From Candidatus Anaeroferrophillus wilburensis (lineage in GTDB: Bacteria > Desulfobacterota > Anaeroferrophillalia > Anaeroferrophillales > Anaeroferrophillaceae): a DNA stretch of 64,000 nucleotides. Below the pieces are notes generated by a model. It was not told the DNA's origin, searched no databases, and worked only from the letters and a program-made list of their open reading frames with translations. This document shows, piece by piece, positions 17,420 through 34,496 of this stretch (position 1 is the stretch's first letter; the number at the start of each line of letters is the position of its first letter). The stretch spans positions 4,361-68,360 of the forward strand of contig JAFGSY010000045.1 of NCBI GenBank assembly GCA_016934315.1. The letters are read 5' to 3'. Position numbers and translations under genes: made by a program.

Positions 17420-18292
17420 TCAGGGCTTCAGCACCTGAACCACCGCCTCTCCAATGTCGGCCGGGCTTTTCACCACTTCGATCCCGGCAGCGGTCATGGC
17501 GGCCATCTTTTCGGCCGCGGTGCCCTTGCCGCCGGCAATGATCGCTCCGGCATGGCCCATGCGCCGCCCCGGAGGCGCCGTCTGCCCGGCGATGAAGCCT
17601 ACCACCGGTTTGGTCATGCAGTTGCTGACAAAAGCAGCCGCTTCCTCCTCGGCGGAACCGCCGATTTCGCCAATCATCACCACCGCTTCGGTTTCCGGGT
17701 CCTCCTCAAACAGGGCCAGCAGATCGATAAACTGGCTGCCGATGATCGGGTCACCGCCGATGCCGATGCAGGTGGACTGCCCCAGACCCCGTTCGGTGAG
17801 CTGTTTCACCGCCTCATAGGTCAGGGTGCCGCTGCGGGAGATAAGACCAACTTTGCCCTTCAGGTGGATAAAGCCAGGCATGATGCCCACCTTGGCTTCA
17901 TCTGGGGTGATCACCCCTGGACAGTTGGGGCCGACCAGCCGGGTTTGGCCATCATCAAGGTAGGCTTTGGCCTTCACCATATCGACGGTGGGGATCCCTT
18001 CGGTGATGCAGACCACCAGGTCAACCCCGGCATCAGCAGCTTCCATGATCGCATCAGCAGCAAAGGGGGGCGGCACAAAAATCAGCGACACGTTGGCACC
18101 GGTCTGCTGGACGGCACTCTCAACGGTATTGAATACCGGAATACCATCCATATCCTGGCCGCCCTTTCCAGGGGTAACCCCGGCAACCACCTGGGTGCCA
18201 TAGGCTACACACTGGCGAGTATGGAACATCCCTTCCTGGCCGGTGATCCCCTGGACGAGAATTTTTGAATCTTTATTAACTAAGATGGACAT
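17420..18292 (-). CDS. sucD: succinyl-CoA synthetase subunit alpha
   Basis: 290 aa [27 protein letters not shown]... Canonical SucD N-terminus and CoA-binding/His-phosphorylation region. Confidence 0.9.
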
Positions 18293-18353
18293 GCTTTTCT
18301 ACCTCCTCATCAGACATTACGAGATCAGTACCAGCACCGTGCGGCAGCTGGAA

Positions 18354-19517
18354 CTACTGGATGGCGGCCACCACTTTCTGGGCCGCGTCCGCCAGGCCCC
18401 GGCCGACAATCATGTCGATACCGGATTCCTCGAGAATTTTTGAGGCCTCTTCGGCATTGGTGCCTTCCAAGCGCACCACCAGCGGTACTTTGATTTCCAC
18501 CTGCTTGGTCGCTTCGATAATACCGTTGGCAATCCGGTCACAGCGGACGATGCCACCGAAGATATTGATCAGCACCGCCTTGACATTGGGATCGGAGAGG
18601 ATAATACGAAAGGCGTTGGCCACCCCTTCGGCATTGGCGCCGCCCCCGACATCGAGGAAGTTCGCCGGCTCACCGCCGGCCAGCTTGATGATATCCATGG
18701 TCGCCATGGCCAGGCCGGCCCCATTGACCATGCAGCCCACATTGCCATCAAGCTTGATATAGTTGAGACCGAACTTGGATGCCTCGATCTCCAGAGGCTC
18801 CTCTTCGGAAAGATCCCTGAGTTCCGTCCAACTGTCCTTGTGCCGGTACTGGGCATTATCGTCAAAGTTTATTTTTGCATCAAGAGCCAGAACCCGGCCG
18901 TCACCGGTAACCACCAGCGGATTGATCTCCAGCAGCGAGCAGTCATTGGCTTCAAAGGCTTTGAAGAGATTGATGAACATCCGCGACGCCTGGCGCACCA
19001 GCTGGGCATCCAAGCCGAGTTTATAGGCAATTTTGGCCGCCTGGAACGGCCGCAGACCCAGGAGCGGATGAACATATTCCTTGACAATTTTTTCCGGGGT
19101 TTCGGCGGCCACCTTTTCGATCTCCATCCCCCCCTCGGTACTGGCCATGATCACCGGCTGATTGGTGGCCCGGTCAATGACAATCCCGAAGTAGTATTCC
19201 TTCTGGATATCCATCCCCTCTTCCACCAGCAGCCTTTTGACTTCCTTGCCTTCGGGACCGGTCTGGTGGGTCACCAGTTGCATGCCGAGAATCTGCTTGG
19301 CTGTTTCATGGGCTTCGTCGGGACCGTTGACCACCTTGACGCCGCCGCCCTTGCCCCGGCCGCCGGCATGAATCTGGGCCTTGACTACCACGGTGCCGCC
19401 GCCCAGATCGATCGCCGCCTGTTTAGCATCATCGACGGTGAAGACGGCAAATCCCCTCGGAACCTCAACCCCGAAGTCCCGCAACAGTGCCTTCGCCTGA
19501 TATTCATGAATTTTCAT
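18354..19517 (-). CDS. sucC: succinyl-CoA synthetase (ADP-forming) subunit beta
   Basis: 387 aa [22 protein letters not shown]... ATP-grasp N-terminus and C-terminal CoA-ligase domain. Confidence 0.9.
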
Positions 19518-19591
19518 ATATCCTCCCTTGTTAGCAGCAACGCGTGCCGTTGAAACACTGAGCTAGCAAACTCTGTACCGAATAGCAACAT

Positions 19592-19621
19592 AAAAGACGG
19601 GAGATACCACCCCGTCTTTTA
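19592..19621 (-). terminator. terminator-like hairpin between sdhA-like gene and sucC (possible attenuating read-through site)
   Basis: aaaagacggg-agataccacc-cccgtctttt. Stem with U-run on the minus strand directly after the sdhA stop. Confidence 0.4.
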
Positions 19622-19648
19622 TGCATCTGATCCTGCCCTTCAAGACCG

Positions 19649-21389: not shown

Positions 21390-22187
21390 CTAAAGTTTTG
21401 TTTTGTCCTGGGGTTCCCAGCCGACACTGTCCTGGGGTTCCATTTCCCGGTCAACATACAGTTTCCGCAAGGTATCATGATCACTGCCCACCAGGTCAAG
21501 AAGCAGGGTATCATACTTATGCTCATTAATCTCCCCTACCCGGTTCTGAAGATGTTCCGCCTGGGGAACTTTATAGCGGGCGTACAGCCGGCGGCACATC
21601 TGTGCCAGGTGAAAGTGCTGGATCTGGGCCGGACAGCGGGACGAACACAAGCCGCACTGAATGCAGTCAAAAGAAAGCCGGGCAACCTTAGCCAGATCAC
21701 CGCGCATGGCAGCATTGACGTATTCCATCACTTCGATATCCATCGGACAGGCCTTGGTGCAGGTGTTGCAGGCCACGCACTTCATCACCTCCGGATAGAG
21801 TTTCATGATTGATTCCGCTGTTGCCGAAGTTTCCTCAATATTGTAGACTGCCCGGTTGGCGGGGAAAAACGGCACCTGGGTCAGGTACATATTCTCCTGA
21901 ACCACGGTTTGACAGGCCAGACCAAAGTGGAGATGATAATCTCCCAGTATCCGGTAGACCGTGCCGCAGGCACCACAGATGCCACCCCGGCAGCCGCAGG
22001 CCCGGATAAACTGATAACCGGCATATTCCGTCGCTTTCTGGATGGTCAGTGTTTCCGGCACCATGTACCGTTTACCCATAATGTAGATGGGCACCAGCCG
22101 GGTACCTTCAGGAAGTATGGCCCGATCACCGGTTGCAATCTTGAATTCTTTTTGTCCCTCACTCATATCCTTGTCCTCCTGCTTCAT
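21390..22187 (-). CDS. succinate dehydrogenase/fumarate reductase iron-sulfur subunit-like protein
   Basis: 265 aa. 2Fe-2S-like CGCRGGICGACG...C. Clusters CVACNTCTKACP and CIQCGLCSSRCP (both CX2CX2CX3CP). 64-bp gap to flavoprotein gene. Confidence 0.75.
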   Translation of the reverse strand: MKQEDKDMSEGQKEFKIATGDRAILPEGTRLVPIYIMGKRYMVPETLTIQKATEYAGYQFIRACGCRGGICGACGTVYRILGDYHLHFGLACQTVVQENMYLTQVPFFPANRAVYNIEETSATAESIMKLYPEVMKCVACNTCTKACPMDIEVMEYVNAAMRGDLAKVARLSFDCIQCGLCSSRCPAQIQHFHLAQMCRRLYARYKVPQAEHLQNRVGEINEHKYDTLLLDLVGSDHDTLRKLYVDREMEPQDSVGWEPQDKTKL

Positions 22188-22217
22188 ACGCTCATCATCG
22201 GGCTGAATTCCCCGGGC

Positions 22218-23383: not shown

Positions 23384-23821
23384 TTAGATATCCCATTCCT
23401 GGGCCAAAGGATTGGCCCCCTGCTCTTCCAGAGCGCCACTGAATTCCCGCACCGTTTCGACAAACAGGCGCCCCTCGCTGGCGCTGATCCACCGTAGCCA
23501 GACCCGGTCGGCATCCATCCCCAGGCAGGCCATGATTTCCCGCAAGAGCGCTATGCGGCGCCGGGCCTTGAAGTTGCCGCTCTGGTAGTGGCAGTCACCC
23601 GGATGACAACCGCCGATCATCACCCCGTCGGCACCTTCCAGGATGGCTTTCAAAACATAGACAACGTCGATGGCTCCCGAACACATCAGGTGAATCACCC
23701 TGATCCCGGATGGATACTGCTGCCGGGTGGTGCCGGCAAGATCGGCACCGGTATAGGTGCACCAGTGGCATAAGAATGCGACAATCCGCGGCTCAAAATT
23801 TTCCGACATAACTTCCCTCAC
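23384..23821 (-). CDS. mvhD: MvhD-like (methyl-viologen-reducing hydrogenase delta subunit family) protein
   Basis: 145 aa with FLCHWCTYTGADLAG ... CSGAIDVVYVLKAILEGADGVMIGGCHPGDCHY, the hallmark Cys pattern of MvhD/FlxD. Confidence 0.8.
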   Translation of the reverse strand: MREVMSENFEPRIVAFLCHWCTYTGADLAGTTRQQYPSGIRVIHLMCSGAIDVVYVLKAILEGADGVMIGGCHPGDCHYQSGNFKARRRIALLREIMACLGMDADRVWLRWISASEGRLFVETVREFSGALEEQGANPLAQEWDI

Positions 23822-23892: not shown

Positions 23893-26800
23893 TTAAAACA
23901 GTCGATTGACCATCGCCATCACCTGGCCCTTGTCAAACCCGTACTGCTGGGTGGCCCCGTTGGGACAGACGGAAGCACAGCTTCCACAGCCATGACAGAG
24001 ATCATAGTGAACATCGGCAATCCTAGTCTCCTGGTTCAGTTCCCGGGCCCCGTAGGGGCAGGCTTCAACGCAGAGGCCGCAGCCGCTGCACAGGCGGGTG
24101 CTGACGGTCACCGCCGTTTTTTCACTGACCAGCTCGCCCTTGCCCAGCACCGTCGCCGCCCTCGCCGCCGCCGCCCGGGCCCGGATCAGCGTTTCATTGA
24201 TATGCAGCGGAGCGGATGCCAGACCGCAATGGTAGCGTCCTTCACCAACAAAATCAACCAGGGCTGCTTTGGCATTCGCTTCCTGGTAGAAGCCGAAATC
24301 ATCAAGGGGCAGACCCAGCAACCGGGAAAGCTCACCAACTTCATGAGGTTCGACCCCGGTGCTCAAGACCACGTAGTCGGCCGCCAGCGAAAGCTTCTGC
24401 TGGAGAATCTGATCATCATAGGTGACCTGCAGGCTATGACTGCCGATCTCGACAACCGGCTTCTGCTCCACGTCATAGGTGGTAAAGAGCACTCCGGCTT
24501 CACGGGCCCGGCGGTAATCATCCTCATAGAGGCCATAGGCGCGCAGATCACGGTAAAGAACCACAACTTCAAGGGTCGGGTTAAGTTCTTTCAACTTCAG
24601 GGAATTTTTCAGGGCATGGGTGCAGCAGACCCGACTGCAGTATTCCCGTTTTCCCCGCTCACGGGAACCGACACATTGGATCATCACCACCCGTTGAAGA
24701 TTTTTCAGGGCTTCACCATTCGTGGCAACCAGCGATTCCAGTTCAGACTGCGTCAAAACCCGCTCGTCCTGACCCCGGAGATACTCATCGGTTGACGCTT
24801 CCCGGCCACCGGTGGCCATCACCAGCACCCCGTGACGGATCAGATGATCAGTCTGATCGTCATCCAGGCGAAAGATGGTGGTATAGTTGCCGGTCCGCCC
24901 TTCATGATGGCTCACTGTCGCCCGGCAGTATACGTCCAGATTCTCCTGGGCCGCAACTGCCTGACGCAGCTTTTCAACCAGCTGCTTAGGCTCCCCTCCC
25001 CTGAGGGTGTAGTGGGAATCCTTGGCCAACCGGCCGCCCAGCTGTTCCTCTTTCTCCAGCAAGGTTACAGGATAACCGCGGCCGGCCAGGGAAAGGGCGG
25101 CCGTCATGCCGGCAACGCCACCGCCGATCACCAGGGCCCGCTGATCAACCGCAATGGTCTGTACAGCCATCGTCTGCCGACTGCCGAACACCTGGGTAAT
25201 GGCTGCCTGCAGCAACGCTCTGGCCTTCGCGGTCGCCGCCTGACGATTGTTGTCATGAACCAGGGAACACTGTTCCCGCAAATTAGCCAGGGCGAAAAAA
25301 GCGCTGTTGAACCCGGCCAGACGGGCAAATTCGTCGCACTGACGTTCCATCTCCCGCACGGAACAAGCACCCAGCACCATCCGGTTCAATGAATGCTTGC
25401 CGATGGCCTGCTGGACGATGGCAAAGCCACCGGTGATGCAGGCATTGTCGATAATTTCCACATGGGCCACATGGGGCTCGGTCCGCACAGCCGCCGCCAG
25501 TGACTCCAGATCCAGCTGCTCTTCCAGCAGACCGCTGCAGCGGCAGAGAAAAACACCAATCCGCGGCCTTTCCTCCCAAACCGCCCCTTCCCGGGGCATC
25601 TTCGGACACTGCTCAGCGGCCGGTTCCCGGCTTACGGCAGCGGCAATCAGATCGGCGGCACAGGCCGCTTCCATCACTGTTTCAGGAATATCTTTGGGGC
25701 CGGTAAATGCCCCGGCCGCATAGATCCCGGCAACCGATGTTGCGGCTGGAAAAAATTCATCGGGACGGCAGAAACCATAATCATCAAGAGCATCGGCCGG
25801 CAAACCGGTACAATCGAGGATCGGGGCATCAAAACCGAGGGAGAGAACCACCAGGTCAAACTCCTCCTCCCGCCGGCGGCCATGATCATCAGCAATCAGG
25901 CGTAACTTCCGGCTTTGGGGATCCTCCTTGACGGTGGAGATCATCGACCGCTGGTAGCGAATGCCGTAGTGCTCTTCGGCTTCCCAGAGATAGCGCTCGT
26001 ACTCCTTGCCCATGCCGCGGAGATCCATGTAATAGATGGTGACCTCGGTTTCCGGCAGCCGTTTTTTGAGAAACATGGCCTGCTTGGTGGCATACATGCA
26101 GCAGACACTGGAGCAGTAACCACGGCCGCAGGCAATGTCCCGGGAACCGGCACACTGGATAAAAGCCACCCGTTCAGGAGCGGAACCATCGGTCAGCAGC
26201 CGGGGAGCACCACCAGTCGGGCCAGAATAGCTGATCATCCTCTCCATCTGACGGCTGGTAATGACATTGGCATAGCGACCGAAGCCGAACTCCCCCTTCA
26301 ACGTGCCCTCAACCAGGGAAAAACCCGGGGTCAGCAGGATCGCCGCCACCTGTTCATCACGCTGTCCGGTTGGCATATCCAGGTCGATCGCCTTGGTGGG
26401 GCAGATGTCGACACAGGCGCCGCAGCGGTTGCAGGCGGCGGCATCAATACGGTAGCCCGCCTTCACCATTTTTGGATACTGTTTATAAATTGCCTTGCGC
26501 TCCTCCAGCCCGCCGCTGAATTCATCGGCAACGGCAACCGGACAGACGTCACTGCATTTGCCGCAGTCGATGCACTTGTCCTGATCGACACCATGGGGAT
26601 CGACAGCCAGGGTGACGATAAAATCGCCCTGCTCGCCGGCAATGGCCAGCGGCCTGGCATTAACCTGGATTTCAAGATTCTGGTGCAGGCGGCACTCAAC
26701 AAAGGGACAATAAGCCGGCTGGCGAGGCGATAAAAAGCAGACGCCGCAGGAGTTCGTCGGAAAGGTGTTGTCCAGCAGAGGGAAAAATCCGCCGATGGCC

Positions 26801-26965: not shown

Positions 26966-27787
26966 TTAAAACAGCCCCGAGGGATCATTGAAATGCTTCT
27001 TCCACCAGCGGGGACGATTGCCGATCTGGAACGCCTCAGCCATCATTTCAGTAAAATAGAGGATCGGCAACCGCTGCTGACGGATATCGACATTGGCCTG
27101 GCACAAAGCACAGGAGGTCACCATGCAATCCACCCCGGCAGCAACGGCATAATCAGTAATCCTGTTGACCAGTTTGGCCGCCTTATCGGGATGGGTCAAC
27201 CCCAGGTCACTGCCGCAGCAATCCACCTTGCAGGACCAGTCAACCACCTCCGCCCCCAGATCCGCCATCAAACGGTCAAGTCGCTGGGGGTTTTCCACAT
27301 CATCGGAACCGGTCACCTCCTGGGGACGGATAATGGCACAACCGTAGTAGCAGACCACTTTCAGACCGCTCAGGGGCTTTTTCACCAGCCCCTTGATCTG
27401 CTCCCGCCGCTGGTCATCGGCAAGGAGGTCGACGATGGACAGCATGCTGATCGTCCCGGAATAGGTAAAACCCAGCAGAGCTTCCAGCTCTTTTTTCTTT
27501 TCCGGATCGGTTTGCAGCACCCGCTGGGCCCGTGCCAGGTTATTGAAACAACCGGCACAGGGAATCACCAGATCTGCACCCTGCTTTTCAGCCTCGGCTA
27601 TATTAAAGGCCGACAGGCCAAGAGCCAGGGACTGGGAGAGATTATGGGCAGAGGCAGCCCCGCAGCAGGACCAATCGGGCAACTCTGCCAGCTCGATGCC
27701 CATTGCCGCCATCACCGCATGGCTGGCTTCGATATACTCAACCGCAGTGGAGTGATTGGTACAGCCTGGATAGTAGGAATATTTCAT
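26966..27787 (-). CDS. hdrB: heterodisulfide reductase subunit B-like protein (two CCG domains)
   Basis: MKYSYYPGCT...PDWSCCGA...VVCYYGCAIIRP...DWSCKVDCCGS... CCG-domain Cys patterns. Confidence 0.8.
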   Translation of the reverse strand: MKYSYYPGCTNHSTAVEYIEASHAVMAAMGIELAELPDWSCCGAASAHNLSQSLALGLSAFNIAEAEKQGADLVIPCAGCFNNLARAQRVLQTDPEKKKELEALLGFTYSGTISMLSIVDLLADDQRREQIKGLVKKPLSGLKVVCYYGCAIIRPQEVTGSDDVENPQRLDRLMADLGAEVVDWSCKVDCCGSDLGLTHPDKAAKLVNRITDYAVAAGVDCMVTSCALCQANVDIRQQRLPILYFTEMMAEAFQIGNRPRWWKKHFNDPSGLF

Positions 27788-27816: not shown

Positions 27817-28347
27817 CTATTTTACACCTGACTTATCAAATATTTCTTTTATCTTCTTAATATTCTTTGATTTTTTTGGAAGAATGGGAATTTTTCCCTT
27901 AAGGAAGAGCTTTAGGCCCACATCGACATCGGTAGTAAAATTCCTGGTTTTCATTTTATACTGCATGAGCATGGTGGCTTCATGAATGCGGCCGAAAGTC
28001 CGGATGCTGCCGGTGAAAGCCCGGTGAAAATCCACCGTCACCTGATCCGCAGGCGCAATCCCCTCTTGCAGACACATCTCCCGCAGGACATCCATTACCG
28101 GTGCCGTTTTGATACCGTTTGGGCAGCGGGTGCCGCAGGTTTCACAGGAAACACACATCCAGATTGCTTTGCTGCGCAGCAGCTCATCCTTCATCCCCAA
28201 TTGAATCATCCGCATCACCATGTTGGGCGGATAATCAAAGTCATCCACCGTCGGACAGCCAAGGGTGCATTTGCGGCACTGGTAGCAGAGATTGACGGGT
28301 TGGCCGCTTCGGGCCACTACCTGCTCGAGAAAGGTTTGCTCAGCCAT
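27817..28347 (-). CDS. hdrC: heterodisulfide reductase subunit C-like protein
   Basis: 176 aa. CYQCRKCTLGCP and CVSCETCGTRCP ferredoxin motifs in HdrC arrangement. Confidence 0.8.
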   Translation of the reverse strand: MAEQTFLEQVVARSGQPVNLCYQCRKCTLGCPTVDDFDYPPNMVMRMIQLGMKDELLRSKAIWMCVSCETCGTRCPNGIKTAPVMDVLREMCLQEGIAPADQVTVDFHRAFTGSIRTFGRIHEATMLMQYKMKTRNFTTDVDVGLKLFLKGKIPILPKKSKNIKKIKEIFDKSGVK

Positions 28348-30332
28348 TACTCAGCTCCTTGCTCCACCAGCTCCAGAGCCGGGCTTTCCTGAACAAAATC
28401 ACCAATCATCCGGATAAATTGACAGGAGGTTGAATTCACCAGTTCACATGCTTTATTGGGGCAGGCGGAGATACAGGCGCCGCAGCCCTGGCAGACCGCT
28501 TGGTTGACCTCGGAAATTCGGCTGAAATCATTCATCACCCGTGCTCCGTAGGGACAGATTTCCACACAGATGCCGCAGCCGCTGCAGACATCGTCCTTGA
28601 CTTCGGCAATCAGCGGATCGGCAATCAGAGTTTCATTGGAAAACAGGGTCTGAATTTTTCCGGAAGTGGCTAAAGCCTGGGAAACCGTATCAGTTATATC
28701 TTTGGGTGACTGGCAACAACCAGCCAGGTAAACACCCTTGGTGGAGCTTTCCACCGGATAGAGCTTGATATGGGTTTCAGAGAAAAATCCCTCTTCGTCC
28801 ACCGTCACCCGCATCTTCTTGGCCAGCTCTTTGATGCCAGCCCGCGGCTCCATCGCCAGGGCGAGAACCACCAGATCGGCATCGATCTCAACTTTTCTGC
28901 CCGTCAGGGTGTCAGCGGTCCAGACTTTTAGACTCTGGTTTTCCGGAAAAATTTTAGCCACCCGGCCGCGAATATAGACCAGCCGGTCCTCCTCCATCCC
29001 CTGCTGGACAAACTCCTCAAAATCGCGGCTGTCGGAACGGATATCCATATAGGAGATATATGCCATCCCCTCCGCCACCTGCTGGCGGTACTGACGAGCC
29101 TGTTTGGCAACATACATGCAGCAGGCCCGGGAGCAGTAGGGCTTATGCCGTTCAGGGTCACGGGAACCGACGCACTGGACAAACACCACACTCCTGGGAA
29201 TCCGGCCGTCGGAAGGGCAGACAACTTTACCGCCGGTTGGCCCCAGGGGATCAAGCATCCGCTCCATGGCCAGACCATCTATTACATCAGGATAGCGGCC
29301 GCCGCCATATTCGGGAAACTGCCGCTGGTCATACAGGTCATAACCGGTGGCCATGATAATCGCACCAATCTTCTCCACCTCAGACTCCGGCTCAGCGGCA
29401 AAAGAGATCGCCGCTTCACTGCAAGCCTGGAAACATTTATCGCAACTGCCATCGGCAACGTGCAGGCAGGCATCCTGATCGACAACCGGCTTCAGCTCCT
29501 GACCACCATATCGGTAGATTGCGCCGCGGGTGGTCAGTCCGCGATCAAAAGCATTGGGCAGTTGAACCGGACAGACCTCCAGACAGGCACCGCAATTGGT
29601 ACAAAGCTCCTGGTTGACATAGGCAGCCTGGGTGGCAATGGTAACCTCAAAATTACCCACGTAGCCATCCAGGTCAGCTACTTCGGCATTGCAGTACACC
29701 TTGATGTTCGGGTGCGCCATCACCTCCTGCACCTTGCGGCCAAGCATGGCTGGCACATCCTGAAAATAGGGAAAGGTTTTTCCCAGCTGCCGCATATGGC
29801 CGCCGATGGCTGGCTGCTTTTCCACCATGGCCACGTCATAGCCGGCATCGGCAAGATCCAGGGCCGCCATGATTCCGGCAATACCGGCACCTACCACCAG
29901 TACCCGTTTATTAAGCGAGATGGTAATGGTTTCCAACGGGATATTGTCGCGCACCTTATCCAGGGTGGCCTCGATGATATTGATCGCTTTAGCAGTGGCC
30001 ACCGGCTTATTATTCTGATGGACCCAGCTGCACTGTTCGCGGATATTGGCGATTTCCACCAGGTAGGAATTCAGCCCCACGAGACCGGCTGCCTTGCGGA
30101 AGGTATTTTCGTGCATCCGGGGCGAGCAGCAGGCCACCACCACCCCGTTGAGCCCTTCTTTTTCAATGGTATCTTTCACCAACTGCTGGCCGGGATCAGA
30201 ACACATGTACATGTAGTTCTCGGCATGCTTGACATCCTTACATTTCCGGACCTCTGTCACCACCCGGTCGACATCAACACTACCGGCAATATTGGAACCG
30301 CACCAGCAGACAAAAACCCCTATTTTTTTCAT
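28347..30332 (-). CDS. hdrA: heterodisulfide reductase subunit A-like flavoprotein
   Basis: 661 aa. N-terminal Cys domain MKKIGVFVCWCGSNIAG. FAD fold VLVVGAGIAGIMAAL. CVGSRDPERHKPYCSRACCMY. Inserted and C-terminal ferredoxin domains (CTNCGACLEVCP, CSGCGICVEICP, CQGCGACISACP). Confidence 0.85.
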   Translation of the reverse strand: MKKIGVFVCWCGSNIAGSVDVDRVVTEVRKCKDVKHAENYMYMCSDPGQQLVKDTIEKEGLNGVVVACCSPRMHENTFRKAAGLVGLNSYLVEIANIREQCSWVHQNNKPVATAKAINIIEATLDKVRDNIPLETITISLNKRVLVVGAGIAGIMAALDLADAGYDVAMVEKQPAIGGHMRQLGKTFPYFQDVPAMLGRKVQEVMAHPNIKVYCNAEVADLDGYVGNFEVTIATQAAYVNQELCTNCGACLEVCPVQLPNAFDRGLTTRGAIYRYGGQELKPVVDQDACLHVADGSCDKCFQACSEAAISFAAEPESEVEKIGAIIMATGYDLYDQRQFPEYGGGRYPDVIDGLAMERMLDPLGPTGGKVVCPSDGRIPRSVVFVQCVGSRDPERHKPYCSRACCMYVAKQARQYRQQVAEGMAYISYMDIRSDSRDFEEFVQQGMEEDRLVYIRGRVAKIFPENQSLKVWTADTLTGRKVEIDADLVVLALAMEPRAGIKELAKKMRVTVDEEGFFSETHIKLYPVESSTKGVYLAGCCQSPKDITDTVSQALATSGKIQTLFSNETLIADPLIAEVKDDVCSGCGICVEICPYGARVMNDFSRISEVNQAVCQGCGACISACPNKACELVNSTSCQFIRMIGDFVQESPALELVEQGAE

Positions 30333-30353
30333 CGATGTTTTTCCCGTTATTCC

Positions 30354-31739
30354 CTATTCAGCAGCCGCCGACTGCCGGCCACGGCGCAAAGATGAGAGAA
30401 ATACCTGTACCTTGCTGGCCGCCGCGCTGCCCTGGGCAACACTGTCGGCAATATCCTTGGTCCCCTGACAGCAGCCGGCCAGGAAAATCCCTTGCTGCCC
30501 GCTGTCAATAGGAGCCAGCTTATAATCCTCTTCAACGAAGAAACCGTCCTTATTGCACCTGATGCCAAGGATATCAGCCAGTTTTTCCGCCCCTTCATTG
30601 GGAACCATGGCTGCGGCCACCACCACCAGATCAGCGGCGATCTCAACCTTTTTACCACTCAGGGTGTCAGCTCCCCAGACCATCACCTTATCACCCTGCT
30701 GAACCAACTTGGCAGCCCGACCCCGAAGATAGACCAGGTTTTCTTCAGAGGTTGACTGCTGGAGAAACTGCTCATAGCCCTTGCCGGTGGTTCGCAGGTC
30801 AATGTAAAAAATATAGGCTTGCCCGTCATGGACCTTATGCTTATAGAGTCGGGCATGCTTGGCGGTATACATGCAGCAGACCCGTGAGCAGTAGGATTTA
30901 TGCAGCTCCGGGTTCCGGGAACCGACACACTGGATGAACACCACATCCCGGGGCACCCGACCGTCCGACGGCCGAAGAACCTTGCCAGCGGTGGGCCCGG
31001 AGGCCGAGAGAAAACGCTCCATGGTCAGCCCGTCAATAACGTCGGGTATCATTCCGCCGCCCAGTTCCGGCATGTTACGTTTCCAGTCGTAGATATCAAA
31101 ACCGGTGGCCACCACAATGGCCCCCACCCGCTCCTCGAAAAAACTGTCCTGCTGCTCGAAATCAATCGCCCCCACCGGGCAGACCTTGGCACAGACACCG
31201 CACTTGCCCTTCGTAAGGTAGCGGCAGAACTCCTCGTTAATCACCGGCTTGTTGGGCACCGCCTGGGGAGACGGGGTATAGATTGCTTTCATTGTCCCGG
31301 CATCACGCTCGAAAAGGGAGAAATTCTTAGTCGGACACTTCTCCACACAAGTGCCGCAGCCGGTACACTTGCTCCAGTCAACATAGGCCCGCTTCTGGCG
31401 GATACTGACGGTGAAATCACCCGGCTGGCCACTGAGGCCTTCCACTTCACAGTAAACCTTCAGCTGGACATTGGGGTGCTGGCCCGTTTCCACCGTTCTG
31501 GGAGTCAGGGTACACTGGGCGCAATCAAGGGTGGGGAAAGTTTCGGACAGCTGCAGCATCCGGCCGCCAATCGCCGACAGCCGCTCCACCAGAACCACCT
31601 GGTACCCGGCGCTGCCGAGATCGATGGCGGTGGTAATCCCGGCAATGCCGCCGCCGATCACCATAACCCGTCGATCTACGGGTACAGTTGCTGCCGGTGC
31701 CTTTTGCTGCTCTTCACTCATCTGCACAACGTCTCCCAT
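30354..31739 (-). CDS. second HdrA-like flavoprotein (shorter, QmoA-like length)
   Basis: 461 aa. VMVIGGGIAGITTAI, CVGSRNPELHKSYCSRVCCMY, CTGCGTCVEKCP. Lacks the N-terminal Cys domain of the 661-aa paralog. Confidence 0.8.
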   Translation of the reverse strand: MGDVVQMSEEQQKAPAATVPVDRRVMVIGGGIAGITTAIDLGSAGYQVVLVERLSAIGGRMLQLSETFPTLDCAQCTLTPRTVETGQHPNVQLKVYCEVEGLSGQPGDFTVSIRQKRAYVDWSKCTGCGTCVEKCPTKNFSLFERDAGTMKAIYTPSPQAVPNKPVINEEFCRYLTKGKCGVCAKVCPVGAIDFEQQDSFFEERVGAIVVATGFDIYDWKRNMPELGGGMIPDVIDGLTMERFLSASGPTAGKVLRPSDGRVPRDVVFIQCVGSRNPELHKSYCSRVCCMYTAKHARLYKHKVHDGQAYIFYIDLRTTGKGYEQFLQQSTSEENLVYLRGRAAKLVQQGDKVMVWGADTLSGKKVEIAADLVVVAAAMVPNEGAEKLADILGIRCNKDGFFVEEDYKLAPIDSGQQGIFLAGCCQGTKDIADSVAQGSAAASKVQVFLSSLRRGRQSAAAE

Positions 31740-31751: not shown

Positions 31752-32630
31752 CTATTCGACTCCGATCCCTTTGGCCTGCAGCATGGGCAGCGGATCGATG
31801 AGATTACGTTCAAACCCGAGTTCAGCCACCGGTAATTCCAAGGCCAGGGCCAGCAGCTGGGTGAAATAGACCACGGGAATCTGCTCGAAGGAGGGGTCGG
31901 CTTTTTTTATCTCCGGCTGCCGGTCATCCAGATTGAACTGGCACAAGGGGCAGGTGGTGATCACCAGGTCGGCACCGCAGTTTCTGGCACTGTTGAGAAT
32001 ATCCCGTGAACAGCGGGTGGCCAGATCCATAGAATGGACGGTCTGGAAGGCGCTGCAGCATTCAATTTTAAAAGGGAAATCAACCGGCTCCGCTCCCAAA
32101 GCACGGACAAAATCCTCAAAGATGGTGGGATTTTCCATGCTGTCAAGGCCGATCTCCTTCACCGGCCGCAGCAGCAGACAACCATAGTAGCAGGCGACCT
32201 TCAGGCCTTCCAGTGGCTTGCTGATCTTCTCAGCCAGCTGGTCAAAACCCAGTTCATCACGCAGAACCTGAAGGTAATGCAGCACTTCGGTCTCACCATG
32301 ATAGTCCCGTTCAATAAAATCGGTAATCTTAGCCCGCCGTTCTTCATCGGTGCGCATGACGTGATTGGTGCGTTTGAGCACATTGTAGCAGACCGAGCAG
32401 AGCGCCACCAGCTTATCACTGCCCTGCTCCTTGGTGTCGGCAAGTATCCGGGTGGGGCCGGACATGGCGATATGATAATCATTCACCAGCGGAAAGGTTG
32501 CCCCGCAGCAGGTCCAGTCGGGAAGCTCATCCAGCTCAAACCCCAGGCGCCGGCTGCACTCACGACCGGCATCATCGAGCTTCTTGGCTTTGGTGTAGAG
32601 GGTACAGCCCGGGAAGTAGGTATAGTTCAT
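31752..32630 (-). CDS. second HdrB-like protein (CCG domains)
   Basis: MNYTYFPGCT...PDWTCCGA...VACYYGC...IECCSA...TTCPLCQFN. Confidence 0.8.
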   Translation of the reverse strand: MNYTYFPGCTLYTKAKKLDDAGRECSRRLGFELDELPDWTCCGATFPLVNDYHIAMSGPTRILADTKEQGSDKLVALCSVCYNVLKRTNHVMRTDEERRAKITDFIERDYHGETEVLHYLQVLRDELGFDQLAEKISKPLEGLKVACYYGCLLLRPVKEIGLDSMENPTIFEDFVRALGAEPVDFPFKIECCSAFQTVHSMDLATRCSRDILNSARNCGADLVITTCPLCQFNLDDRQPEIKKADPSFEQIPVVYFTQLLALALELPVAELGFERNLIDPLPMLQAKGIGVE

Positions 32631-32661
32631 CTGCTAACTCCAAAAAAAGTATGCCAATCTC

Positions 32662-33078
32662 TTACAGCGAGAGAAATTTGCGATAGCCGCTGATCATGGC
32701 TATCTGTGGTGCCCTCTCAAGATAATCATCATCGAAATCCGTAACATCAATCCGGGAATTATGCTCATCCTCCCGCAGGCGCAGCACCCGCAGGGCATCC
32801 ATAATCTTGGAAATATCCACCCCCTTGGGGCAGCGGGCATGACACATGAGGCAGGCGGCGCACACCCACATGGATTTACAGGTTTTCACCTCTTCCACCA
32901 GGCCAAGCTGCAGATAGCGGACCACCTGGCTGGGCAGCAGATCCATCTCTTCCACCGATGGGCAGCCAGCCGAACAGTTTCCGCACTGATAACAGTTAAA
33001 GAAATTCTCACCGCTGATTTCCGCCACTTTCTGGACAAAATCGGCGCGGACGGTATCCTGAGAAATCGTTGCTTTCAT
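32662..33078 (-). CDS. second HdrC-like protein
   Basis: Start set at MKATISQ (avoids large overlap with fumB). CYQCGNCSAGCP and CAACLMCHARCP. Confidence 0.7.
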   Translation of the reverse strand: MKATISQDTVRADFVQKVAEISGENFFNCYQCGNCSAGCPSVEEMDLLPSQVVRYLQLGLVEEVKTCKSMWVCAACLMCHARCPKGVDISKIMDALRVLRLREDEHNSRIDVTDFDDDYLERAPQIAMISGYRKFLSL

Positions 33079-33088
33079 GGCCTTTCCC

Positions 33089-33643
33089 CTATTTCTGGTA
33101 CTGGCTGACTCCCTGCTCATACAGGTCATTGCCGTAAATATCATTGACCACCACCACCGGAAAATCCTCTACCTCCAGACGGCGGATGGCCTCCGGCCCT
33201 AAATCCTCATAAGCAATCACTTCCGCCTTTTTGATCCGCTGGGCCAACAGGGCACCTGCTCCGCCCACTGCGGTGAAGTATATCCCCTTATAGGTCTTCA
33301 TGGCATCTTTTACCGCCTGACTGCGCCCCCCCTTGCCGATCATGCCCTTGAGTCCATGGGCCAGCAGGGTGGGAGAATAGGAATCCATGCGGTAGCTGGT
33401 CGTCGGTCCGGCAGCACCGATGGCATGCCCCGGCCGGGCCGGGGTCGGCCCGACAAAATAGATAATCTCCCCCTGCAACGGCAATGGCAGTTCTTTGCCC
33501 TGCTCCAGCAGATCCACCAGACGTTTATGGGCCGCATCCCGCCCGGTGTAGATCGTTCCACTGATCAAAACCCGATCGCCGCTGCGCAGGCGCTCCACAT
33601 CAGCATCGGTCAATGGCGGAGTCAGGCGAATAGCTTCACTCAT
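33089..33643 (-). CDS. fumB: class I fumarate hydratase (Fe-S hydro-lyase) beta subunit
   Basis: Start at MSEAIRLTPPLTDADVERLRSGDRVLISG. C-terminal catalytic domain of two-subunit class I fumarase/tartrate dehydratase family. Confidence 0.7.
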   Translation of the reverse strand: MSEAIRLTPPLTDADVERLRSGDRVLISGTIYTGRDAAHKRLVDLLEQGKELPLPLQGEIIYFVGPTPARPGHAIGAAGPTTSYRMDSYSPTLLAHGLKGMIGKGGRSQAVKDAMKTYKGIYFTAVGGAGALLAQRIKKAEVIAYEDLGPEAIRRLEVEDFPVVVVNDIYGNDLYEQGVSQYQK

Positions 33644-33656
33644 AGCAACCTCTTTA

Positions 33657-34496
33657 TTAAATGACAACCTCTTTATGCCGAGCGGCATGACATTGAATAT
33701 TGATGGCCAGCGGCAGACTGGCAATATGGCAGGGCAGCATCTTGACATGGACGGCAAAACTGGTCACCCGGCCGCCAAGCCCCTGGGGACCGATGCCAAG
33801 TTCATTAATCGCTGCCAGCAGATCCTTTTCCAGCAGGGCAAGTTCTGGGTCGGCACTGGGGTCCCCGGCCGGACGCAGCAACGCCTCTTTGGCCAGCAGG
33901 GCAGCCCGCTCAAAGGTACCGCCGATACCGACCCCGACAATGGTGGGCGGACAGGGATTGGCACCGGCCTGCTGCACCCAGGCAACCACCTCCCGCTTGA
34001 TCCCCTCAATGCCGTCAGCAGGTTTGAGCATCACCACTTTTGACATATTCTCACTGCCGCCGCCTTTGGGGGCAACAATGATTTTAACTTTGTCTCCGGG
34101 AACCAGGGAATAATGAATGATGGCCGGCGTATTGTCGCCGGTATTCTTGCGGGTAAAGGGATGGCAGGATGATTTTCGCAGAAAACCTTCCTGGTAGCCG
34201 CGTCGGACACCGTCGTTGATGGCGGCTGACAAATCACCACCAACCAGGTGAACCTCCTGGCCCACTTCAACAAAGACAACCGCCAGACCGGTATCCTGAC
34301 AGATGGCTACCCGATCATGGGCGGCAATAGCAGCATTTTCCTGCAGCTGTTTGAGGATATCAATACCGGTGGGCGACTCCTCGCGGTCGATGGCAGTGGC
34401 AATCACCGCCTGCATGTCATCACCAAGTTCGTAATTGGCCGCCATACAGAGACTGGCCACAGCATCACTGATACTACCTACTGCAATTTCCCGCAT
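33657..34496 (-). CDS. fumA: class I fumarate hydratase (Fe-S hydro-lyase) alpha subunit
   Basis: 279 aa MREIAVGSISDAVASLCMAANYELGDD ... CQDTG ... C. N-terminal domain of the Fe-S hydro-lyase family with Cys ligands. Confidence 0.7.
   Translation of the reverse strand: MREIAVGSISDAVASLCMAANYELGDDMQAVIATAIDREESPTGIDILKQLQENAAIAAHDRVAICQDTGLAVVFVEVGQEVHLVGGDLSAAINDGVRRGYQEGFLRKSSCHPFTRKNTGDNTPAIIHYSLVPGDKVKIIVAPKGGGSENMSKVVMLKPADGIEGIKREVVAWVQQAGANPCPPTIVGVGIGGTFERAALLAKEALLRPAGDPSADPELALLEKDLLAAINELGIGPQGLGGRVTSFAVHVKMLPCHIASLPLAINIQCHAARHKEVVI

Follow-up and report, generated by a model that had tools for sequence, protein, structure and literature searches.

The operon described here appears to join a membrane-free fumarate reductase to electron-splitting proteins of the heterodisulfide reductase (Hdr) type, in an uncultured anaerobe, and the link is common to many phyla. 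Our reading, which we hold with somewhat more confidence than doubt, is that a cytoplasmic fumarate reductase acts as the high-potential outlet of HdrA electron bifurcation, on a route from malate to succinyl-CoA. Gene content, motifs, conserved synteny and the replacement of a flavin-linking histidine are seen directly in the sequences; a physical complex, bifurcation, the direction and the donor are inferred.

The operon and its boundaries

By the window we mean the whole stretch of DNA analysed, 64,000 nucleotides (64 kb). Fifteen open reading frames, all on the minus strand and with coordinates checked in the sequence, span positions 17420-34496 (Table 1). They follow the order fumAB, hdrC2B2A2, hdrA1C1B1, hdrL, mvhD, an FdhB/FrhB-like gene, an sdhB-like gene, an sdhA-like gene and sucCD. 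With start codons revised for three genes (fumB at 33643, hdrC2 at 33078, and the FrhB-like gene at 23363), the junctions measure -1 to 131 nt. The original prediction of 15 co-directional genes with short or overlapping junctions agrees with these frames, and its upstream terminator at 34.5-34.9 kb and its terminator at 17.4 kb are both visible in the sequence as clean hairpins; the promoter region of that prediction holds one promoter-like site. The terminator at ~17365-17395 reads aaaaaaGCGGTGCCcgacaGGCACCGCtttttt. The family assignments of the operon ORFs stand, and fumA, fumB, sucC and sucD all exceed their NCBIfam equivalog cut-offs.

Table 1. Features of the operon and its borders, in the order of transcription
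Feature	Position	Strand	Evidence and remarks
Intrinsic terminator of upstream acyl-CoA operon	34863..34908	-	12-bp perfect stem, then T-run; sets the 5' boundary of the operon
Sigma-70-like promoter candidate, TTGACA-17-TACAGT	34541..34569	-	~45 nt upstream of fumA ATG; 10/12 match, best in region; candidate by consensus match only
fumA, class I fumarate hydratase alpha subunit	33657..34496	-	NF004885 404.9 bits vs cut-off 276; PF05681
fumB, class I fumarate hydratase beta subunit	33089..33643	-	NF005310 279.8 vs 238; start is Met39 of listed ORF
hdrC2, HdrC-like, 2x[4Fe-4S] motifs	32662..33078	-	TIGR03290 E 7e-19, below cut-off; start probably Met23
hdrB2, HdrB/SdhE-like, two CCG domains, all 10 ligand Cys	31752..32630	-	PF02754; TIGR03288 180.5 bits, below cut-off
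hdrA2, truncated HdrA	30354..31739	-	N- and C-terminal domains absent; keeps the TrxR-like core and the inserted ferredoxin domain
hdrA1, full-length HdrA, candidate bifurcating flavoprotein	28347..30332	-	5odc_A/8rvu_a E about 1e-172, residues 3-644
hdrC1, HdrC-like, 2x[4Fe-4S] motifs	27817..28347	-	Profile matches and motifs
hdrB1, HdrB-like, two CCG domains, all 10 ligand Cys	26966..27787	-	Profile matches and alignment
hdrL, fused HdrA pair	23893..26937	-	Core-only unit and near-full unit without inserted ferredoxin domain
mvhD, [2Fe-2S] adaptor	23384..23821	-	PF02662 161 bits
FdhB/FrhB-like flavo-Fe-S protein (P0121), 381 aa	22218..23363	-	PF04432 24.5 bits, just above cut-off
SdhB/TfrB-N-like Fe-S subunit	21390..22187	-	Lacks a CCG domain; carries a [2Fe-2S] motif and two 4-Cys [4Fe-4S] motifs
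Short-form SdhA/FrdA/TfrA-like flavoprotein, 558 aa	19649..21325	-	Asn134 at flavinylation-His site; catalytic H327/T343/E344/R368/H441/R475
sucC, succinyl-CoA synthetase beta subunit	18354..19517	-	NF001913 588.7 vs 370
sucD, succinyl-CoA synthetase alpha subunit	17420..18292	-	NF004230 475.1 vs 336
Bidirectional intrinsic terminator, sucD / convergent ABC ATPase gene	17365..17395	.	A-run, GCGGTGCC/GGCACCGC stem, T-run

The reductase pair

The fold and the nearest PDB sequences of the SdhA-like protein are those of SdhA/FrdA. It is not, however, an ordinary SdhA: it belongs to a distinct short family with a conserved ~95-aa N-terminal extension and no C-terminal PF02910 domain, and it falls under every NCBIfam cut-off, TfrA being the best family match (NadB models give 270 bits, Frd models 278-334). 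At the position of the flavin-linking histidine, set by alignment to the 'AHT'/'SHT' of solved SdhA chains, this family has an asparagine in 75/75 relatives, and we propose from the sequence that its FAD would be bound non-covalently. The catalytic or dicarboxylate-binding residues H327, T343, E344, R347, R368 and H441 occur in all 75 relatives, and R475 in 74 of them. Since the AF2 model is moderate (pLDDT 63), it offers no structural argument.

The SdhB-like gene lies directly upstream of its partner in 72/72 loci, and 12 ligand cysteines of the protein are kept in 72-73 of 73 relatives. In methanogens, TfrB consists of SdhB-like, HdrC and HdrB parts fused in one chain, whereas the window encodes them as separate subunits, which cover the 488 positions of the TfrB model piecewise (SdhB-like 21-175, HdrC 110-238, HdrB 264-484). 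The idea of a TfrAB-like enzyme made from separate subunits finds support in this.

The pair had also been said to lack an anchor, with a check for SdhC/D or FrdC/D nearby. Among the multi-TM frames of the 64-kb window there is no Sdh/Frd anchor; all are of unrelated families (TatC, DsbD, CNNM, DUF4126, PGPGW, FtsX-type permease), and a hydrophobic-segment scan finds more than one such segment in no operon protein. A margin of 2.5 kb around the sdhBA pair is free of multi-TM frames in 73 of 80 related loci, and in the seven others the frames found there are of unrelated families.

The Hdr genes and the donor side

The two HdrBC sets are 34-40% identical to each other. When HdrB1 and HdrB2 are aligned, all 10 ligand cysteines are in register and each copy keeps both 5-Cys non-cubane motifs; HdrC1 and HdrC2 carry two CxxCxxCxxxC motifs apiece. 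HdrA1 matches the methanogen HdrA 5odc_A over its full length (E 1.6e-172), and HdrA2, which covers positions 128-561 of the HdrA model, is 48% identical to HdrA1 137-566. HdrL is a true tandem HdrA, its residues 13-438, 459-685 and 701-1010 corresponding to HdrA1 141-567, 3-228 and 321-643; BamE of class II benzoyl-CoA reductase is likewise a fused HdrA dimer (preprint 10.64898/2026.04.10.717634). In every HdrA unit of the operon, the second Rossmann region reads CVGSRD/E and not GxGxxG. The operon holds bifurcation-competent parts, namely the full-length HdrA1 and the intact non-cubane motifs of both HdrB.

The FdhB/FrhB-like protein is probably a donor-side adaptor. Its description as FrhB-like stands as far as the PF04432 match goes, but its homologues carry the name 'formate dehydrogenase subunit beta'. 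None of the operon's 15 genes encodes a recognisable catalytic subunit for NAD(P)H, H2 or formate, and the operon contains no donor-oxidising FlxA, NuoF, GltD-type, MvhAG or FdhA; donor modules differ between related loci (Flx, Mvh hydrogenase, GltD-like, HdrL).

Conservation across related loci

We compared 80 related loci from several phyla, in bins labelled Desulfobacterota, Deferrisomatales, Nitrospirales, Aminicenantes, Cloacimonadota, Sumerlaeota, Anaerolineae and others. Hdr linkage was scored where the upstream flank reaches 9 kb or more, in 39 loci: co-directional Hdr genes accompany sdhBA in 37 (HdrB in 37, HdrA-type in 36, MvhD in 33). The full 13-gene array is kept even at 49% identity of the FdhB-like protein. 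In most lineages, one HdrBC set stands beside HdrA and the SdhBA pair; locus L080, and also L045, have a four-gene hdrC-hdrB-sdhB-sdhA unit without HdrA. Genes for 2-oxoacid:ferredoxin oxidoreductase (OFOR) are co-located in Aminicenantes (L059), Celaenobacter (L067) and Desulfofervidaceae (L069), with a malate dehydrogenase (MDH) gene at L069 and an Mvh [NiFe] hydrogenase at L067.

The same arrangement recurs in dozens of independent contigs, and consequently is not due to chance. The gene order of the operon bears out the claim that an SdhAB-like pair is embedded in an Hdr/MvhD module, and the adjacency, which was to be given up if it proved strain-specific, is found far beyond one strain.

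A bifurcation model and a carrier alternative

From gene order, we infer that the SdhAB-like pair is coupled to the Hdr proteins, with bifurcation and ferredoxin reduction as part of this coupling. Fumarase, fumarate reductase and succinyl-CoA synthetase would lead from malate to succinyl-CoA in the cytoplasm, the reductase being a soluble Fe-S flavoprotein, composed of the SdhA-like and SdhB-like proteins, that has no quinone-binding anchor and would be wired to HdrBC. Electrons from a mid-potential donor would enter at the FdhB-like protein and reach the HdrA flavin by way of MvhD and HdrL, the pair being split at this flavin. The high-potential electron would then travel from the HdrC [4Fe-4S] clusters to the non-cubane clusters of HdrB, the SdhB-like clusters, the SdhA-like FAD and finally fumarate, whose E0' is about +30 mV; the low-potential electron would leave HdrA by its inserted ferredoxin domain, to reduce ferredoxin. 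Fumarate reduction would thus pay for ferredoxin reduction, and fumarate would take the role of CoM-S-S-CoB in methanogens. Class II benzoyl-CoA reductase offers a precedent for a link between HdrB and a flavoprotein: there an ETF at ~+16 mV receives the high-potential electron from BamD, an HdrBC-like protein (preprint 10.64898/2026.04.10.717634). NADH-driven fumarate reduction amounts to -58 kJ/mol (PMC13147460); if the model is true, the ~58 kJ/mol lost in reduction of this type would be partly recovered as reduced ferredoxin.

Several observations count against this model. Among them are the lack of a recognisable donor-oxidising subunit in the operon and the CVGSRD/E reading of the second Rossmann region in its HdrA units. 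A simple single bifurcation does not account for two sets of HdrBC and as many as four units of HdrA, and the 64-kb window holds no OGOR or ACL gene. According to its description, the host MAG uses the Wood-Ljungdahl pathway rather than the rTCA cycle (preprint 10.1101/2021.03.22.436540), and in Endoriftia the expression pattern of tfrAB is unlike that of the Hdr-Flx genes (PMC11636981). Because the unit of L080 stands alone without HdrA, the reductase can evidently work without bifurcation.

It is possible, if rather unlikely, that two enzymes are linked by a diffusible thiol/disulfide carrier instead of forming one wired complex. One of them, a split thiol:fumarate reductase made of HdrC2B2 and the SdhAB-like pair, would oxidise a dithiol. 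The other, a bifurcating disulfide reductase that comprises HdrA1C1B1, HdrL, MvhD and the FdhB-like protein, would re-reduce the carrier, which would be DsrC-like or a thiol of low molecular weight. Fumarate would still drive ferredoxin reduction, via a methanogen-like thiol cycle. The composition of TfrB, the presence of two complete HdrBC sets, each with all CCG ligand cysteines, and the units without HdrA are consistent with such a cycle, as is the HdrABC/HdrL/MvhD/Fe-S module of S. fumaroxidans, which has been linked to DsrC and has no Frd (PMC5947623). However, a carrier gene is absent from the operon, the single HdrB of most lineages would need to serve for reduction as well as oxidation of the carrier, and BamD shows that HdrB-type clusters can act as a plain electron relay (preprint 10.64898/2026.04.10.717634).

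Direction, quinones and substrate

Fumarate reduction is favoured over succinate oxidation, because the flavinylation histidine is replaced throughout the family, because the protein of the window has Glu at the FrdA-E49/SdhA-Q50 position (E139), as do 58/75 relatives, and because other lineages co-locate MDH, OFOR and Mvh hydrogenase genes. Of the 'succinate-to-fumarate (or reverse)' step first proposed, it is thus the reverse that we retain, and the same histidine replacement and neighbours speak against placing the operon in propionate (methylmalonyl-CoA) catabolism. NADH-driven fumarate reduction, at -58 kJ/mol (PMC13147460), fits the reductive direction too. The rule on the E49/Q50 position is cited in PMC10308238. 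The same source reports, for the soluble fraction of P. thermopropionicum, whose anchor-less SDH2 adjoins an FrhB-like gene, 35.7 mU/mg of NADH:fumarate activity against 3.7 mU/mg of succinate oxidation.

We regard as improbable the oxidative direction, which was among the options first put forward. Cells oxidising acetate or propionate would then oxidise succinate in the cytoplasm with these same proteins, with confurcation of reduced ferredoxin to a carrier near -200 mV and menaquinone bypassed. Fumarase and succinyl-CoA synthetase are reversible, and the Desulfobacterota hosts are anaerobic. Succinate and reduced ferredoxin average ~-210 mV, as calculated from standard potentials, and could reduce a disulfide-type acceptor. 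Position 139 has Gln, the SQR-type residue, in 17/75 relatives, which counts against the reductive reading. On the other hand, with NAD+ as acceptor, confurcation would be uphill by ~110 mV, methylmalonyl-CoA pathway genes were not found in the 64-kb window, and the Mvh hydrogenase that clusters with relatives, together with MDH and OFOR, is of the uptake type. The missing histidine weighs in the same sense: His44 variants of E. coli FrdA, with non-covalent FAD, lose succinate oxidation and keep fumarate reduction. Moreover, SDH2 of P. thermopropionicum is not the propionate-oxidation enzyme (PMC10308238).

Less probable still is a type-E (SdhABEF/MfrABE-like) quinol:fumarate reductase, in which HdrB2 would be an SdhE-type monotopic membrane subunit, so that the quinone pool would not be bypassed, and HdrA and HdrL would serve another process. 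HdrB2 and HdrB1 match the MFR SdhE model (184.7 and 157.9 bits) as well as they match HdrB, and S. fumaroxidans frdABEF has been so classified (PMC3570798), but the cut-off for SdhE is 500, far above these scores. HdrC, the partner here, is soluble, SdhF was not seen, linkage to HdrA and MvhD holds in 33-36 of the 39 loci across phyla, and the flavoprotein, apparently without covalent FAD, has no C-terminal domain of the respiratory SdhA/MfrA kind.

Finally, the sub-threshold profile scores, a NadB match close to that of Frd, and the PGAP label 'FAD-binding protein' would fit an aspartate-oxidase-like enzyme or one acting on another enoate or dicarboxylate, fumAB and sucCD lying nearby by coincidence, but this is very improbable, given the obligatory Fe-S partner (unlike NadB), the TfrA match, and the position of sucCD directly downstream of sdhBA in 22/60 loci and of fumAB upstream of the pair, both in the window and in L069 and L079, which are distant lineages.

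Relation to earlier proposals

Hdr-linked 'tfrAB' clusters and a bifurcating role have already been proposed (PMC6315080, PMC8542988, PMC11636981), as has an FrhB-linked cytoplasmic FRD (PMC10308238). Earlier publications apply the idea of a bifurcating fumarate reductase to Pelotomaculum SDH2 and to Flx and Mvh variants, in tubeworm symbionts and Ca. Celaenobacter. The novelty first claimed for the operon must be reduced by that much; the statement that no enzyme of this composition is characterised still stands, since the full-text literature searched on fumarate reductase, Hdr and bifurcation yielded no report of a purified one. The operon's double-Hdr architecture with HdrL is a new variant.

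Gene content and boundaries of the operon

The operon consists of 15 minus-strand open reading frames that fill its whole interval (see the table). Searches of these frames with Pfam and NCBIfam models bear out the order in which the original prediction had placed 15 co-directional genes: fumA-fumB-hdrC2-hdrB2-hdrA2-hdrA1-hdrC1-hdrB1-hdrL (1014 aa)-mvhD-fdhB-like (first called FrhB-like)-sdhB-like-sdhA-like-sucC-sucD. The products of fumAB and sucCD pass the NCBIfam equivalog cut-offs. For the Hdr proteins, MvhD and the Sdh-like proteins the family assignment holds, with scores below these cut-offs, as expected for bacterial homologues. Once the starts of three genes are corrected, the junctions range from a 1-nt overlap to 131 nt, in agreement with the short or overlapping junctions first described.

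Hairpin terminators of the textbook type lie on both sides of the operon, and the best promoter-like site of the region is found about 45 nt upstream of fumA. This agrees with the terminator at 17.4 kb and the promoter region with an upstream terminator at 34.5-34.9 kb that were first described. An Rfam scan of the operon and its leader gave no match, and the 460-nt region upstream of the operon has no notable repeats except the terminator stem.

The operon is flanked by an unrelated acyl-CoA operon and an ABC transporter, and the remainder of the window is housekeeping. The acyl-CoA operon, which has its own terminator, encodes an acyl-CoA dehydrogenase, an HMG-CoA lyase, an enoyl-CoA hydratase and a second, atypical HMG-CoA-lyase-like protein (390 aa, 146.7 bits against a cut-off of 246); its content resembles a leucine/isovalerate-type branch. 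Three antisense frames of 374-492 aa, one with three TM-like segments, run over the operon genes and are best treated as shadow ORFs, being without independent support. The describers of Ca. Anaeroferrophillus wilburensis predict an anaerobic fermenter and sulfur-compound respirer with a Wood-Ljungdahl pathway (preprint 10.1101/2021.03.22.436540); their description of the MAG does not mention the cluster.

Coordinates of features in the window and in the loci of relatives
Sequence	Feature	Position	Strand	Remark
window	hairpin terminator	~17365-17395
window	15-gene operon	17420-34496	minus	fumA to sucD
window	antisense ORF	21909-23387	plus
window	fdhB-like gene, corrected start	23363	minus	381 aa, identical to database protein P0121
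window	hdrL	23893-26937	minus	1014 aa
window	antisense ORF	26861-27985	plus
window	hdrA2-hdrA1	28347-31739	minus
window	antisense ORF	29145-30395	plus
window	hdrC2, corrected start	33078	minus
window	fumB, corrected start	33643	minus
window	hairpin terminator	34863-34908
window	acyl-CoA operon	34955-39113	minus	upstream of the 15 genes
window	disulfide oxidoreductase and DsbD-type genes	57468-60065
L047	membrane/cytochrome genes	6237-7187		downstream of sdhBA
L049	second SdhB-like ORF	11657-12319		example from the Nitrospirales
L058	membrane/cytochrome genes	3272-5525		downstream of sdhBA
L067	HdrA-MvhD fusion region	4154-6538		upstream of sdhBA
L083/L084	36-aa ORF	5432-5542		between hdrC and hdrB

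A short flavoprotein family and its iron-sulfur partner

The only Pfam match of the SdhA-like flavoprotein (558 aa) is PF00890; the C-terminal domain PF02910 has no match, and homology stops near residue 505-520. At the other end, the first 95 residues or so form an extension that is conserved among relatives. The best NCBIfam match is archaeal TfrA, the flavoprotein of thiol:fumarate reductase (NF004900; 334 bits against a cut-off of 718, over model positions 6-426 of 546 only), with generic Frd/Sdh and NadB models next in rank, and the nearest solved chain is the SdhA of M. smegmatis Sdh1. An AF2 model built on a 19-sequence alignment is of moderate quality (pLDDT 63, pTM 0.71); Foldseek retrieves SdhA, FrdA and flavocytochrome c3 with it, and is uninformative on the N-terminal extension.

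At the place of the R-S-H-T flavinylation motif (PS00504, covalent 8-alpha-N3-histidyl FAD), the window protein reads D-A-N-T-V-M-A-E-G-G, and its Asn134 aligns to the flavinylation His of solved SdhA chains. This Asn is kept in all 75 full-length relatives found in 80 genome loci (54-87% identity), as are the catalytic residues H327, T343, E344, R347, R368 and H441; R475 is kept in 74. By sequence, the His/Thr/Glu/Arg/His/Arg set of an FrdA-type, fumarate-reducing active site is present. Lengths in the family run from 536 to 561 aa, with one outlier at 645. The position of FrdA-E49/SdhA-Q50, residue 139 here, is Glu in 58 relatives and in the window, and Gln in 17, a difference that may separate functional subtypes.

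In the SdhB-like protein (265 aa), one [2Fe-2S] motif (C-x4-C-x2-C...C) is accompanied by two complete CxxCxxCxxxCP motifs, with all 12 ligand cysteines kept in 72-73 of 73 relatives. Because both ferredoxin-type motifs are complete, it bears no [3Fe-4S] signature; it has no CCG domain either. No Sdh/Frd anchor (SdhC/D or FrdC/D) was detected in the operon, elsewhere in the 64-kb window, or beside the pair in the 80 related loci, so that the claim of a missing membrane-anchor partner holds over this whole range; operon proteins have at most one hydrophobic stretch each, and all multi-TM frames of the window belong to unrelated families. The flavoprotein misses the TfrA equivalog score, and the traits of respiratory complex II types A-D are missing by sequence: anchor, flavinylation His, PF02910 and [3Fe-4S] third cluster. 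On these features we assign the pair to a distinct, anchor-less family with predicted non-covalent FAD.

Conservation of the Hdr linkage

The genome scan took one genome per species and returned 139 relatives, 80 of which were kept. No contig matched the window's own protein in a search for identical sequence. All are MAGs, with labels, some doubtful, that include Desulfobacterota, Deferrisomatales, Nitrospirales, Aminicenantes, Cloacimonadota, Sumerlaeota, Coatesbacteria and Anaerolineae. When the 15 window proteins are mapped onto the kept loci, an SdhB-like gene directly precedes the flavoprotein gene in 72/72. The original prediction depended on the adjacency of sdhAB, hdrABC and mvhD extending beyond one strain: it extends over several phyla, with co-directional Hdr genes in 37 of the 39 loci that have at least 9 kb upstream (HdrB 37, HdrA-type 36, MvhD 33, HdrL 20). 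The flanking genes are less constant: sucCD lies downstream of the pair in 22/60 loci, and fumAB ahead of hdrC in two distant lineages, L069 and L079.

The full array hdrC-hdrB-hdrA-hdrA-hdrC-hdrB-hdrL-mvhD-fdhB-like-sdhB-sdhA-sucC-sucD recurs where the FdhB-like protein is only 49% identical, and the same 13 genes are also found in an 82%-identical relative. Other lineages retain hdrC-hdrB-hdrA and sdhB-sdhA and exchange the donor side: it is Flx-type in Nitrospirales and Aminicenantes (an MvhD fusion, a Fer4_22 protein and an FlxA-like protein with NAD_binding_1 and [2Fe-2S] domains), MvhG, MvhA and HycI in Ca. Celaenobacter (L067), and a GltD-like Fe-S flavoprotein in Desulfofervidaceae. 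Several donor-swapped loci also have inserted genes for a 2-oxoacid:ferredoxin oxidoreductase (OFOR). From its gene order, mdh-fumA-fumB-hdrCBA-OFOR-sdhBA-sucCD, locus L069 is predicted to encode a full reductive branch from oxaloacetate to 2-oxoglutarate. Locus L080, considered as an Endoriftia-type cluster and rejected as such, is a minimal stand-alone hdrC-hdrB-sdhB-sdhA unit.

Some loci have further peculiarities. In all Nitrospirales loci (L049-L054) the SdhA-like gene is immediately followed by another SdhB-like ORF, which has about 220 aa and is divergent: it is 32-36% identical to that of the window and has no Pfam match at 1e-6. Membrane or cytochrome genes follow sdhBA in two loci, L058 and L047: in one of them, a distant locus, a bc1/b6-type cytochrome b and a multihaem cytochrome c about 0.9 kb downstream, in the other an NrfD-type membrane protein about 1.3 kb downstream. 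The genes may point to rare variants linked to quinone, or simply belong to neighbouring operons. In L083/L084, where the FdhB-like protein is 49% identical to that of the window, hdrC and hdrB are separated, in the second Hdr set, by a called ORF of 36 aa; the matching junction of the window is a 29-nt gap only.

The Hdr proteins and the donor side

HdrA1 is of full length and shows every HdrA domain: N-terminal, TrxR-like, inserted-ferredoxin and C-terminal ferredoxin. It aligns to 5odc_A over 5-647 (E 1.6e-172), and its matches to methanogen structures lie at E ~1e-172. The other units are partial: HdrA2 is a core-only form, and in HdrL two HdrA units are truly fused, the first with core and inserted ferredoxin domain, the second near-complete, with N- and C-terminal domains and without the inserted one. 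HdrB1 and HdrB2 each have two 5-Cys CCG motifs, retaining the ten cysteines of both non-cubane clusters, and each HdrC has two [4Fe-4S] motifs.

The hdrA2-hdrA1 genes, core-only then full-length, mirror as two polypeptides the order of the HdrL halves. HdrL may therefore have originated when two such genes fused, or the pair may derive from HdrL. The shared order also suggests that the HdrA2-HdrA1 pair and the HdrL halves both form pseudo-heterodimers. Another lineage with duplicated HdrA units is Ca. Celaenobacter, where an HdrA-MvhD fusion (794 aa) is followed by a second HdrA and a separate MvhD.

The classical glycine motif of NAD(P)H binding is absent from the second Rossmann region of HdrL and of the other HdrA units, so that the label "NADH-binding HdrL" of the literature is unsupported here. 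The related annotation of a GltD-type NAD(P)H domain in HdrL, to which weak NCBIfam matches exist, was rejected: the second half aligns to HdrA itself. We also rejected the Lys of the CSRxCCMYxxK motif, which we take to be the N5-contacting Lys of HdrA, as a marker of bifurcating versus non-bifurcating forms, for it is found in all four HdrA units. On the donor side the operon has MvhD and the FdhB-like protein, whose homologues are named "formate dehydrogenase subunit beta" in databases; no catalytic subunit of a donor module (MvhAG, FdhAB, FlxABC or F420H2 site) was recognised among the operon genes. In Desulfobacterium autotrophicum, FdhB-like genes lie beside hdrL/hdrA and mvhD, sometimes with fdhA (PMC2702500).

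Mechanism and direction

The TfrB model of methanogens is covered piecewise by the SdhB-like protein (21-175), HdrC (110-238) and HdrB (264-484), so that HdrBC and the SdhAB-like pair can be read as a split Tfr. Full-length HdrA and MvhD nearly always accompany these genes. On the simplest reading, fumarate takes the place of the heterodisulfide as high-potential acceptor of HdrA-type bifurcation: fumarate (~+30 mV) would accept the high-potential electron, and the low-potential one would go to ferredoxin. The energetics fit, because NADH-driven fumarate reduction releases ~58 kJ/mol (PMC13147460), enough to raise a second electron pair to ferredoxin. Class II benzoyl-CoA reductase offers a structural precedent for a direct Fe-S route from HdrB to a flavoprotein: there the HdrBC-like BamD delivers to an ETF of ~+16 mV and BamE is a fused HdrA dimer (preprint 10.64898/2026.04.10.717634). 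The physical complex, the bifurcation and the donor are steps that we infer.

A rival to such direct coupling is a thiol shuttle, that is, two enzymes linked by a carrier; both the two intact HdrBC sets and the four-gene unit without HdrA speak for it. The window also encodes a 476-aa pyridine-nucleotide-disulfide oxidoreductase with dimerisation domain, adjoining a DsbD-type membrane protein, a pair that may matter here should the Hdr system work with a thiol/disulfide carrier.

Against the reverse direction, that of an oxidative and confurcating succinate dehydrogenase, speak the flavin site, the gene context and the thermodynamics towards NAD+. We conclude that the pair probably works in the fumarate-reducing direction, as suggested by the missing flavinylation His, Glu139, the MDH, OFOR and Mvh contexts, and data on Pelotomaculum, which has an anchor-less, FrhB-linked SDH2 and a soluble NADH:fumarate activity of 35.7 mU/mg against 3.7 mU/mg for succinate oxidation (PMC10308238). 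That the flavoprotein acts on a substrate other than fumarate is unlikely, as fumarase and succinyl-CoA synthetase genes flank the pair and the Fe-S partner is obligatory. A type-E quinol:fumarate reductase, to which the HdrB proteins are similar at the level of SdhE (HdrB2 184.7 and HdrB1 157.9 bits, equal to their HdrB scores, against an SdhE cut-off of 500), is made less likely by the HdrA/MvhD linkage; no SdhF-like gene was recognised, and an HdrC stands in its place.

Fumarate-driven bifurcation could be taken further, to one soluble megacomplex of four HdrA units (HdrA2, HdrA1 and the HdrL halves), two HdrBC pairs, MvhD, the FdhB-like protein and the SdhAB-like pair, with fumarate reduction as the high-potential sink of two coupled bifurcation/confurcation modules in series, much as class II benzoyl-CoA reductase has recently been described. 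We consider this assembly improbable. If true, it would be a new class of electron-bifurcating enzyme, conserving the energy of fumarate reduction without quinones or membrane, with donor modules (Flx, Mvh, GltD-like, HdrL) exchanged between phyla.

Novelty and significance

The original prediction is supported in part: it was right in its logic of coupling the pair to Hdr, and its open direction is now narrowed to a probably reductive one; its claim of novelty went too far. The association of Hdr with fumarate reductase is already known as an idea from tubeworm symbionts, Thioflavicoccus and Ca. Celaenobacter, and Hdr-linked Tfr/Frd clusters were proposed earlier (PMC6315080; PMC11636981; PMC8542988). 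The operon is a variant of a predicted but uncharacterised enzyme type: in agreement with the statement that no characterised enzyme of this composition was known to the author, the literature searched contained no purification or structure report, nor a purified bifurcating enzyme with fumarate as high-potential acceptor. Three elements appear to be new: the definition of the flavoprotein family (short form, Asn134, N-terminal extension); its near-obligatory Hdr linkage across phyla, with interchangeable donors; and a double-Hdr operon of the HdrL type whose single transcription unit takes in fumAB and sucCD.

A 2026 survey of the reductive TCA cycle flagged AB-only fumarate reductases as incomplete and unexplained (PMC13147460). 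If the complex works as proposed, it would offer an explanation: fumarate reduction in many uncultured anaerobes would be neither quinone-linked respiration nor a wasteful NADH reaction, but energy-conserving, ferredoxin-generating and membrane-free. The ATP and ferredoxin balances of reductive TCA branches, and of fermentations of fumarate or malate, would shift accordingly. An enzyme whose bifurcation is driven by fumarate would represent a new class, and a sharply testable one. The comparative result supplies a concrete family marker, the short Asn134-type flavoprotein, almost always Hdr-linked and with interchangeable donor modules, and a list of cultured or enrichable organisms for testing.

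Comparison with known systems

Methanothermobacter TfrAB is likewise a soluble fumarate reductase without anchor, TfrA is the top-scoring family of the flavoprotein, and TfrB combines SdhB-like Fe-S, HdrC-like and HdrB-type CCG parts, all three encoded in the window. However, the window splits the functions of TfrB over three polypeptides and links HdrA, MvhD and HdrL to them, and its flavoprotein scores far below the TfrA cut-off, lacks about 120 C-terminal model positions and has the conserved 95-aa extension. CoM and CoB thiols are not expected in this bacterium, contrary to Methanothermobacter.

In the reductive TCA clusters of tubeworm symbionts and Thioflavicoccus, tfrAB is interspersed with flxABCD-hdrABC and korABCD, and a complex feeding 2-oxoglutarate:ferredoxin oxidoreductase (OGOR) and Tfr was proposed, with partial support from co-expression (PMC6315080; PMC11636981). 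A TFR-OGOR-fumarase-SCS-Mvh-Hdr cluster of Ca. Celaenobacter was described in 2021 (PMC8542988); since Ca. Celaenobacter antarcticus is our L067, the published cluster carries the same SdhA-like family (55% identity). These clusters share with the window an AB-type soluble fumarate reductase beside HdrABC, with electrons proposed to come from a bifurcating complex. In contrast to them, the window cluster has HdrL, MvhD and the FdhB-like protein as donor module where the others have FlxABCD or MvhAG; it contains two sets of HdrBC along with four HdrA units, lacks OGOR, and keeps fumAB and sucCD within one transcription unit.

The order hdrA1-hdrC1-hdrB1-hdrL-mvhD-fdhB-like fits the HdrABC/HdrL module of Desulfobacterota, with hdrABC, a large HdrL, MvhD and an FdhB-like Fe-S protein, as in S. 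fumaroxidans (Sfum_0819-0824, compared by description) and at the HdrL loci of Db. autotrophicum (PMC5947623, PMC2702500). These modules have no Frd/Sdh genes, as already noted for S. fumaroxidans (PMC5947623), and their proposed partner is DsrC or sulfite reduction, whereas in the window the module sits between hdrC2B2A2 and sdhBA. In Pelotomaculum thermopropionicum SDH2 (PTH_1490-1492), an anchor-less SdhAB adjoins an FrhB-like multi-domain Fe-S protein; NADH:fumarate activity was measured in the cytoplasm, in crude fractions only, and the enzyme was renamed FRD (PMC10308238). In contrast to the window, no Hdr genes are reported for this cluster.

Class II benzoyl-CoA reductase, BamB-I, resembles the window in its fused HdrA dimer (BamE, similar to HdrL), its MvhD-type adaptor (BamF), and an HdrBC-like subunit that passes the high-potential electron to a flavoprotein near 0 mV. 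It differs in that it uses the low-potential branch to reduce an aromatic ring at a tungsten cofactor, its high-potential acceptor is ETF and not a fumarate reductase, and its donor is a HydBC-like NADH/ferredoxin module.

The C, D and E subunits of the fumarate reductase of Hydrogenobacter thermophilus reportedly include Hdr-like and GltD-like proteins. As summarised in PMC13147460, this five-subunit, soluble, NADH-dependent enzyme (Miura et al. 2008) is NADH-linked and non-bifurcating; it resembles the window system as a soluble fumarate reductase of the reductive TCA cycle, with A and B homologous to FrdAB and extra subunits for electron input.
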